Shown: positions 5,068 through 6,861 of the stretch, one piece after another
How positions within the stretch are numbered: the first letter of the stretch is position 1
Layout: each line of letters begins with the position of its first letter
DNA from: Escherichia coli
GTDB taxonomy: Bacteria > Pseudomonadota > Gammaproteobacteria > Enterobacterales > Enterobacteriaceae
NCBI RefSeq assembly: GCF_003334765.1
Contig: NZ_QOWT01000046.1
Length of the DNA: 23,492 nt
Strand: one strand, 5' to 3'
Translations under genes and position numbers: made by a program
Notes under the pieces: generated by a model
What the model saw: the letters and a program-made list of their open reading frames with translations, nothing else
Database searches by the model: none
Told to the model about the DNA's origin: nothing

Positions 5068-5211
5068 GTGTTAATTTCTGGTCATGAGGTAATTTTCAGG
5101 AGGGCTTGTGGCAAAAGTTTTTACACAAGAAGAGCGGGAAAAAATTAAAGGGCAGGTTGTTGAACTCGTACGCCAGAGTGGGCGCGAGACGTTACGACAA
5201 CTGGAAACTAA

Positions 5212-6407
5212 GGAAGGTGCGAACAAGTTCCTGATATGAGATCATCATATTCATCCGGAGCGCATCCCAGAGGGACATCATGAGCCATCAACTCACCTTC
5301 GCCGATAGTGAATTCAGCACTAAGCGCCGTCAGACCCGAAAAGAGATTTTCCTCTCCCGCATGGAGCAGATTCTGCCATGGCAGAATATGACCGCTGTCA
5401 TCGAGCCGTTTTATCCCAAGGCGGGCAATGGCCGACGGCCCTATCCGCTGGAGACCATGCTGCGTATTCACTGCATGCAGCATTGGTACAACCTGAGCGA
5501 CGGTGCCATGGAAGATGCCCTGTACGAAATCGCCTCCATGCGCCTGTTTGCCCGATTATCCCTGGATAGCGCCCTGCCGGACCGCACCACCATCATGAAT
5601 TTCCGCCACCTGCTGGAGCAGCATCAACTGGCCCGCCAATTGTTCAAGACCATCAATCGCTGGCTGGCCGAAGCAGGCGTCATGATGACTCAAGGCACCT
5701 TGGTCGATGCCACCATCATTGAGGCACCCAGCTCGACCAAGAACAAAGAGCAGCAACGCGATCCGGAGATGCATCAGACCAAGAAAGGCAATCAGTGGCA
5801 CTTTGGCATGAAGGCCCACATTGGTGTCGATGCCAAGAGTGGCCTGACCCACAGCCTAGTCACCACCGCGGCCAACGAGCATGACCTCAATCAGCTGGGT
5901 AATCTGCTTCATGGAGAGGAGCAATTTGTCTCAGCCGATGCCGGCTACCAAGGAGCGCCACAGCGCGAGGAGCTGGCCGAGGTGGATGTGGACTGGCTGA
6001 TCGCCGAGCGTCCCGGCAGGGTAAAAACCTTGAAGCAGCATCCGCGCAAGAACAAAACGGCCATCAACATCGAATACATGAAAGCCAGCATCCGTGCCAA
6101 GGTGGAGCACCCGTTTCGCATCATCAAGCGGCAGTTCGGCTTCGTGAAAGCCAGATACAAGGGGCTGCTGAAAAACGATAACCAACTGGCGATGTTATTC
6201 ACCCTGGCCAACCTGTTTCGGGTGGACCAAATGATACGTCAGTGGGAGAGATCTCAGTAAAAACCGGAAATAACGCCAGAAATGGTGGAAAAAATAGCCT
6301 AAATAGGCTGATTCGATGTGTTTGCGGGAAAAAAATCGGCCCAGATCCGCGAAATTTTAATCAGCGAGTCAGCTTGGGAAGAAATGACCTGCTTATTCGC
6401 ACCTTCC
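5212..6407 (+). mobile_element. IS5 insertion sequence with 4-bp CTAA target-site duplication
   Basis: Left end GGAAGGTGCGAACAAG at 5212; right end CTTATTCGCACCTTCC at 6392-6407; CTAA at 5208-5211 and 6408-6411; length about 1.2 kb; encodes the IS5 transposase. Confidence 0.9.
5280..6260 (+). CDS. insH: IS5 transposase InsH (326 aa)
   Basis: Track [39 protein letters not shown]... matches IS5 transposase as I recall it; framed by IS5 inverted repeats. Confidence 0.9.
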
Positions 6408-6861
6408 CTAATACTGGGGCAACAAGATATCTGATGAGCGTTCTGGCCAGAGAGCTGGTTGCCAGTGGCGATGTATACAACTCTGGTTACGGGTTATTCC
6501 CGTCTGAACAGGCGCGTAAGGACTGGCAAAATGCCCGTAAAAAGCTCTCAAGGGCAAAGCTGAAGAAACCATCTGCGGTTGATCCGGACCTTATCTGGTC
6601 ATTACCTGACGGAGAAATACGTCGCTACGACAGGCGTCAGAACATAATCTGTCGCGAGTGCCGGAAGAGTGAAGTTATGCAGCGCATATTGTCGTTTTAT
6701 CAGGGTGATGTTCGGTATTTATTGAAGTGACGAGATTAAAGTGCATTAGTTCAGATGCAAATTGACATTTTGTGGCACAGGGTAGAGCTAGCGTGGTTGT
6801 CCGCTTTGTGCCAATAGCGGACATTGCTGGCTCATGGTATGTTAGTTTAAGGAGGCAGGTT

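Follow-up and report, generated by a model that had tools for sequence, protein, structure and literature searches.

The window examined here, a 23,492-nucleotide stretch of Escherichia coli DNA (contig NZ_QOWT01000046.1), is a lambdoid prophage of the Rac type. A ren-like gene of the DUF977 family, situated just after the replication initiator gene, is split by an insertion sequence (IS), a complete copy of ISKpn26. Very probably, this arrangement arose by one simple and probably recent transposition of ISKpn26 into the sequence CTAA in codon 35 of the gene, most likely as a neutral step in the decay of a prophage that is defective. The features of the insertion site are listed below.

5098..5103, + strand: ribosome-binding site AGGAGG of the ren-like gene, ending 4 nt before the GTG at 5108
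5108..5211, + strand: 5' fragment of the ren-like gene, codons 1-34 and 2 nt of codon 35; the N-terminal part, aligning to DUF977/PHROG 142
5208..5211: copy 1 of the target-site duplication, CTAA, directly outside the left IS end
5212..6407, + strand: ISKpn26, complete, 1196 bp, by nucleotide identity to ISKpn26 copies
5212..5227, + strand: left terminal inverted repeat, GGAAGGTGCGAACAAG, a 15/16 match with the right repeat
5280..6260, + strand: transposase gene, 326 aa, co-directional with the prophage early-right operon
6231..6407, + strand: last 177 bp of the IS, the putative counterpart, by homology, of the IS5 "internal bend" with its A-tracts
6392..6407, − strand: right terminal inverted repeat, GGAAGGTGCGAATAAG on the − strand
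6408..6411: copy 2 of the target-site duplication, CTAA, directly outside the right IS end
6412..6730, + strand: 3' fragment of the ren-like gene, end of codon 35 to stop, with no credible translation start of its own

The inserted element is ISKpn26

Positions 5212-6407 read as an intact IS5-family element of 1196 bp. Its length of about 1.2 kb and its imperfect inverted repeats of about 16 bp, starting GGAAGGTGCGAA, are those of the IS5 family, and the right end as read, CTTATTCGCACCTTCC, finishes at 6407. The initial annotation had described an IS5 insertion flanked by a duplicated CTAA. The ends, the 15/16 inverted repeats and the CTAA at both 5208-5211 and 6408-6411 were found again when the sequence was re-read, so that neither the terminal repeats nor the flanking duplication is absent.

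A single intact DDE transposase of the IS5 family is encoded by the element. It matches NCBIfam model NF033581 over the full profile (1-285/285; E 5.5e-110; 367 bits against a cutoff of 140). Identical residues number 324/326 in the comparison with K-12 InsH5 and 319/326 in that with InsH1.

The nucleotide comparison settled the name. Many plasmid copies of ISKpn26, annotated "IS5-like element ISKpn26 family transposase", are 100% identical to the element over all 1196 bp. K-12 IS5Y is 99.1% identical with 11 mismatches, and canonical K-12 IS5A (1195 bp) is 91.9% identical with 5 gap openings. In ISfinder naming practice the isoform level is a nucleotide identity of about 95% or more. IS5 proper was rejected as the name, the 91.9% identity to IS5A lying below that level. 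The earlier "IS5" label therefore holds for the family, as the IS5-type ends and NF033581 indicate, but not for canonical IS5, and by nucleotide identity the element is ISKpn26, an IS5-family member with IS5-type ends. At its 3' end, A-tracts at 6259, 6289 and 6329 face the AT-rich island downstream. A role of the 3' internal bend region has been described in IS5 (PMC2753651), and homology suggests that 6231-6407 is its counterpart.

Relatives carry the empty site

A 4-bp match between the flanks has by itself a chance of 1/256. The insertion is beyond chance because the element is 100% identical to ISKpn26, the restored gene gives an end-to-end DUF977 match and the flanks are contiguous in E. 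coli Z1323PEC0008. The comparison with IS-free homologous prophages that the initial annotation had proposed was run, and it gave colinear flanks with a single CTAA. Window 3651-5211 corresponds to 7840-9400 of the Z1323PEC0008 locus (L001) and window 6408-15813 to 9397-18800. The two alignment blocks overlap by exactly 4 bp, which is the lone CTAA.

An 800-nt query from which the IS and one CTAA had been removed matched Z1323PEC0008 at 99.6% identity in one unbroken match. Unbroken matches over at least 80% of the length of the query were found in 1891 genomes, and in all listed matches the annotated features are a "helix-turn-helix domain-containing protein" and, after it, a "DUF977 family protein". 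The empty site with one CTAA was read in Z1323PEC0008 and three more genomes. These four IS-free relatives have GGAAACTAAAACTGGGG or GGAAACTAAAACTTGGG, where the window has GGAAACTAA, the IS and then CTAATACTGGGG. CTAA is a documented target of IS5, whose target class is Py-T-A-Pu (PMC5493358), and the restored gene holds only two Py-T-A-Pu sites.

The insertion is strain-specific, because its junction was not found in the genomes searched: among 5426 complete E. coli genomes none had the same left junction over at least 80% of the query, and the exact 37-nt junction gave 0 matches across GTDB species representatives. The perfect identity to circulating ISKpn26 copies and the intact duplication suggest that the event was probably recent.

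The split gene belongs to the DUF977/Ren-like family

Joining 5108-5211 to 6412-6730 restores an open reading frame of 423 nt (140 aa and a stop codon), as the initial annotation had predicted. The span 5098-6730 that it gave for the insertion runs from the AGGAGG ribosome-binding site through the stop codon of the split gene. The homology search that it had called for was run, and the restored protein matched Pfam DUF977 (PF06163; 2-133/134; E 5e-29) and PHROG 142, "Ren-like exclusion protein" (E 4e-45). Lambda Ren also falls in PHROG 142 (E 1.6e-41). In BLASTP, lambda Ren and the restored protein share 9/20 identities (E 5e-6) within the C-terminal motif N-x-I/V-x-x-E-C-R-x-S-x-x-M-x-R-x-L-x-x-Y. 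By family, the split gene is a lambda Ren homologue with no known essential replication function. NCBIfam holds no family for the restored protein, a PADLOC search gave no match for it or for the initiator, and a PDB sequence search returned nothing meaningful for it. K-12 YdaW was considered as an orthologue and rejected, as BLASTP gave no significant similarity.

The earlier placement of the split gene in the replication region is borne out by position, with the initiator at 4105-5067 and the ren-like gene starting at 5108. The same order, replication gene or genes and then ren/DUF977, is found in lambda (O, P, ren), in mEp460 and in E. coli prophages. Lambda Ren is described as being transcribed from pR with O and P and as interacting with the Rex proteins (bioRxiv 10.1101/2021.04.19.439022). 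For DUF977 and LygF, the literature search turned up a winged-helix fold assignment (PMC2686095) and no functional study.

An AlphaFold2 model of the restored protein, built with 19 sequences, has a predicted local distance difference test score (pLDDT) above 90 over residues 11-80. The modelled winged helix consists of helix 1 (7-24), helix 2 (29-36), helix 3 (40-53) and a beta wing (57-64). The top PDB fold matches are all winged-helix DNA-binding domains of the ArsR, GntR, MarR and IclR types, with weak E-values near 0.03. The earlier profile-based assignment (PMC2686095) agrees with the model. On this model, the IS in codon 35 cuts helix 2 of the predicted domain.

The reading frame of the 5' fragment continues into the IS as far as a stop at 5239 and encodes a peptide of 43 aa, 34 of them native and 9 IS-encoded. 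The 3' fragment keeps the C-terminal motif N-x-I-C-x-E-C-R-x-S-x-x-M-x-R that it has in common with lambda Ren. An open reading frame at 6242-6730, which begins within the IS and shares the frame of the 3' fragment that it enters, was considered as a fusion protein and set aside, its GTG being without a ribosome-binding site. Because the gene is cut in helix 2, the stub has only 43 residues and the 3' remnant has no credible start, we infer that the split allele is null. This agrees with the initial annotation, which expected the insertion to inactivate an early-operon gene.

When 1.84 billion representative proteins were searched exhaustively with phmmer, no more than 101 relatives, counted as representative clusters, came up for the DUF977/Ren-like family, which is small and phage-restricted. 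Many members are truncated or carry unrelated N- or C-terminal extensions. Because so many are truncated or chimeric, frequent recombination breakpoints inside the gene are suggested.

A second ISKpn26 insertion in an orthologous gene

E. coli TOE17 (NZ_CP069093.1; locus L011, 5750-6945) also carries ISKpn26, of 1196 bp, in the orthologous DUF977 gene. The IS, the gene family and the kind of prophage are the same, and the duplication, TTAG, is the reverse complement of CTAA. The TOE17 insertion is an independent event: it lies at codon ~136 rather than 35, points the other way and precedes a QueH cargo gene. A rough chance estimate was made from ~10 IS5-family copies per 5-Mb genome and 7874 gene copies of about 423 bp. 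By this estimate several IS hits are expected among the 7874 matched gene copies, and two events do not demonstrate a hot spot.

The replication module lacks a dedicated loader

The gene upstream of the insertion is the following.

4105..5067, + strand: replication initiator, 320 aa, with an HTH_36/DnaD_N-like N-terminus, a lambda O-like C-terminal domain and DnaT-like last 21 residues

The initiator belongs to PHROG 391, "replication initiation O-like" (E 4.5e-115), and its N-terminus matches Pfam HTH_36. Its C-terminal part is 38.7% identical to lambda O residues 171-277 by tblastn (E 4e-23), and its last 21 residues give a weak match to the DnaT C-terminus (E 0.004). A 13-nt direct repeat, CCYGATCCGTCAG, is present inside the initiator gene in two copies, at 4564-4576 and 4585-4597, spaced 21 nt apart. 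The repeats could be origin iterons as in lambda O, and two copies may also be chance.

No P-like or DnaC-like gene lies beside the initiator. The initial annotation had noted that no such helicase loader was evident there, and tblastn upheld this: with the BR1220 DnaC-like protein, K-12 YdaV and lambda P as queries, no match was found in the window, in the Z1323PEC0008 locus or in the whole mEp460 genome. The initiator is directly followed by the DUF977 gene, with neither IS nor loader, in Z1323PEC0008, AF44, DEC9B, THO-006 and the complete phage mEp460_ev081. In BR1220 an initiator identical at 318/320 residues is followed by DnaC-like, DUF1627 and DUF977 genes. Near-identical O-like initiators (317-318/320 residues) thus occur with or without the DnaC-like and DUF1627 pair, and both layouts are natural variants. 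Because IS-free prophages and mEp460 share the initiator-to-DUF977 layout, the missing loader is unrelated to the IS. A lambdoid replication module that would need no more than an O-like initiator is a more interesting subject than the IS, and a separate question.

Transcription downstream of the insertion

Downstream of the split gene lie a candidate promoter element and an AT-rich island.

6880..6888, + strand: candidate extended -10 (TGgTATAAT) for the downstream island, read from the sequence and missed by the consensus scan
6922..8901, + strand: two-gene cargo island, 320 aa and 333 aa, G+C content 37.7%

A consensus promoter scan of 4900-7100, which requires a -35 match, gave 0 sites on both strands, and no convincing -35/-10 pair was visible at the right junction on inspection. 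Neither result supports a hybrid promoter or the outward promoter activity that the initial annotation had thought possible. The candidate, a perfect extended -10, precedes the GTG at 6922 by 33 nt, and this GTG is provided with a ribosome-binding site, AAGGGAG. From the IS end, the distance is 475 bp to the candidate -10 and 514 bp to the GTG. These positions suggest that the island probably uses its own promoter.

Terminator-like sites numbered 4 against 2.1 expected. Three are on the − strand, and no strong + strand terminator was found; the one + strand hairpin is weak and lies inside the IS at 5905-5923. In the IS5/fucAO case, transcripts from the transposase (ins5A) promoter cross the whole element into the downstream operon with ~15% loss (PMC11894529). 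Because the transposase gene is co-directional with the early operon and IS5 transcripts run through the element, strong transcriptional polarity would not be expected, by analogy with fucAO.

The cargo genes, 6922-7884 and 7900-8901, lie between the ren-like gene and hokD. Cargo protein 1 has a weak Pfam match to HEPN_RES_NTD1 (E 2.2e-4), the only Pfam signal of the island; cargo protein 2 has no Pfam match. Neither protein has a PADLOC match or an NCBIfam family, and the PDB sequence search returned nothing meaningful for either. A single-sequence AlphaFold model of cargo protein 1 was poor (pLDDT 54) and was therefore set aside. The occupant of this slot varies among relatives, being QueH, a reverse gene of 449 aa or a protein longer than 890 aa. 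The island could be an uncharacterised conflict or defence module. This variable AT-rich slot between the ren-like gene and hokD is likewise more interesting than the IS, and a separate question.

The prophage has lost its head and tail genes

The left part of the prophage holds an exonuclease gene, DicF and dicB, then the repressor, cro-like, YdaT/cII-like and initiator genes and the split ren-like gene. To the right follow the cargo island, hokD/sok, DUF968, RusA, Q (11554-12375) and a methyltransferase gene, then three tRNAs, the lysis genes and the terminase small subunit gene. In the open reading frame at 22115-22930, residues 9-86 match terminase profiles and residues 87-271 match tail-fibre profiles. 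Near 22373, the first ~70 codons of the terminase large subunit gene are fused, with the frame kept, to the C-terminal part of a side tail-fibre gene. A tail-fibre assembly gene follows this chimera from 22930. The junction indicates that the whole head and tail morphogenesis block was deleted. Because this terminase-to-tail-fibre deletion removed the head and tail genes, the prophage is defective and cannot make particles. The IS insertion adds one further step to its decay.

RNA features matched in Rfam above the gathering score were as follows.

1419-1470, − strand: DicF small RNA
9350-9524, + strand: sok antitoxin RNA, beside hokD
14049-14295, + strand: three tRNAs
14374-14564 and 14842-15051, + strand: STnc100, two copies
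23273-23471, + strand: IS009 RNA, inside the tail-fibre assembly gene

A convergent overlapping gene pair lies between the lysis genes and the terminase gene, at 19597-20217 (+ strand) and 20159-21226 (− strand). PADLOC models matched the pair as "cll" (E 4e-31) and "PD-Lambda-2_C"/"beta" (E 4e-32), and relatives annotate it as sce7726 family and beta family proteins.

Discussion

The sequence is best explained by a single, simple event. ISKpn26 very probably transposed into a Py-T-A-Pu target, CTAA, in codon 35 of the ren-like DUF977 gene. CTAA was thereby duplicated, and the gene is left as a 43-aa N-terminal stub and a startless 3' fragment. The ren-like allele would be null. Early transcripts would pass through the co-directional IS, and the AT-rich genes would probably be served by their own promoter.

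Classical genetics established that lambda ren is dispensable for growth on non-lysogens and that Ren gives protection from Rex exclusion; this protection, and interaction with Rex and O proteins, are known only for lambda Ren. Because lambda ren is dispensable and the head and tail genes are already lost, the insertion is most likely a neutral step of prophage decay. Nothing contradicts the structural reading of the insertion, and some points qualify the account. At base 6412, the next one after the second CTAA, the window has T and the four IS-free relatives have A, which makes the restored allele K35N relative to them; this could be an ancestral single-nucleotide polymorphism or a later change. 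The second, independent ISKpn26 in the orthologous TOE17 gene could hint at preference or selection. After the transposase stop codon ~660 nt (6261-6921) are untranslated, which could allow Rho-dependent polarity. Finally, "neutral" and "not strongly polar" are themselves conclusions that we infer.

The IS might instead mark an IS-mediated deletion or rearrangement, in which for example a DnaC-like loader gene was lost, or an assembly mis-join. Close relatives such as BR1220 do hold DnaC-like and DUF1627 genes between the initiator and DUF977, and the window is without them. However, the loader-less layout occurs without the IS in Z1323PEC0008, AF44, DEC9B, THO-006 and phage mEp460, the flanks align colinearly with these genomes, the two blocks sharing exactly the 4 bp of the duplication, and an intact duplication speaks against an adjacent deletion. 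We regard a deletion or mis-join as effectively refuted. Another proposal is a polar block of the early-right transcript, by which the genes downstream to the antiterminator Q would be under-expressed and the prophage helped to stay locked. The IS does lie between the pR-proximal genes (cro-like, cII-like, initiator) and Q, and both the ~660 untranslated nt and the weak + strand hairpin at 5905-5923 are compatible with such a block. Against it stand the loss of only about 15% when transcripts pass IS5 in the same orientation in fucAO and the lack of any strong + strand terminator; particle formation is moreover already lost through the deletion between terL and the tail-fibre gene, so that a late-gene block would be of little consequence. 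A polar block is unlikely, though not negligible.

Selection for adaptive activation was also weighed. Here the insertion would switch on the cargo at 6922-8901 in the lysogen, either by read-through from the transposase promoter or through the IS5-type bent-DNA/integration host factor (IHF) region at the 3' end counteracting silencing. The IS is oriented as in known IS5 activations, where the ins5A promoter lies distally and the 3' internal bend (IB) end proximally to the target (PMC2753651); for fucAO, transcription reading through from IS5 is on record (PMC11894529), the G+C content of the island is low, at 32-43%, and TOE17 has a second independent ISKpn26 in the same gene. But IB-type effects have a reach of about 100-170 bp and vary with helical phase (PMC2753651), whereas here 475 bp separate the IS end from the candidate -10, and 514 bp separate it from the first start codon. 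The TOE17 insertion is opposite in orientation and upstream of a different cargo gene (QueH), and no promoter-like site was found at the junctions. Adaptive activation is therefore improbable. It is very improbable that ISKpn26 insertions into the ren-like DUF977 gene of Rac-type prophages are favoured by target preference or by selection, and that an IS in the present orientation would drive or de-silence AT-rich cargo, a possible conflict or defence module, and so turn a decaying prophage into a constitutive defence locus.

A simple transposition into CTAA thus accounts for the locus: a common IS in a known gene family of a defective prophage, which is ordinary prophage decay. The locus can be annotated as a DUF977/ren-like pseudogene interrupted by ISKpn26, and the prophage as defective through the IS and, more importantly, through the terminase-to-tail-fibre deletion. 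Beyond annotation the insertion has little significance; it could be used as a marker of the strain.

Comparison with known systems

The window element and other ISKpn26 copies have the same 16-bp inverted repeats, 326-aa DDE transposase and 4-bp Py-T-A-Pu duplication; only the location differs. K-12 IS5A (insH1) and IS5Y (insH5) likewise share ends, organisation and target type with it, and IS5Y also interrupts a Rac prophage gene, lomR. Lambda ren belongs to the same PHROG 142 and has the same place after the replication genes in the pR operon. Lambda Ren shares the C-terminal motif and an N-terminal winged-helix-type domain with the window protein. The two proteins are about 20% identical overall and differ in length, with 140 aa in the window and 96 aa in lambda; unlike lambda Ren, the window protein has an extra linker of about 40 residues and a Pfam DUF977 match. 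The IS5 activations of glpFK, flhDC, fucAO and bgl involve the same element family in the same orientation to the downstream genes, and the glpFK target is also CTAA. In these known activations the IS lies in a promoter region, ~100-170 bp away from the start site, or forms a fusion promoter together with a Crp site that lies upstream. In contrast, the IS in the window is intragenic and lies about 475-515 bp from the next gene.

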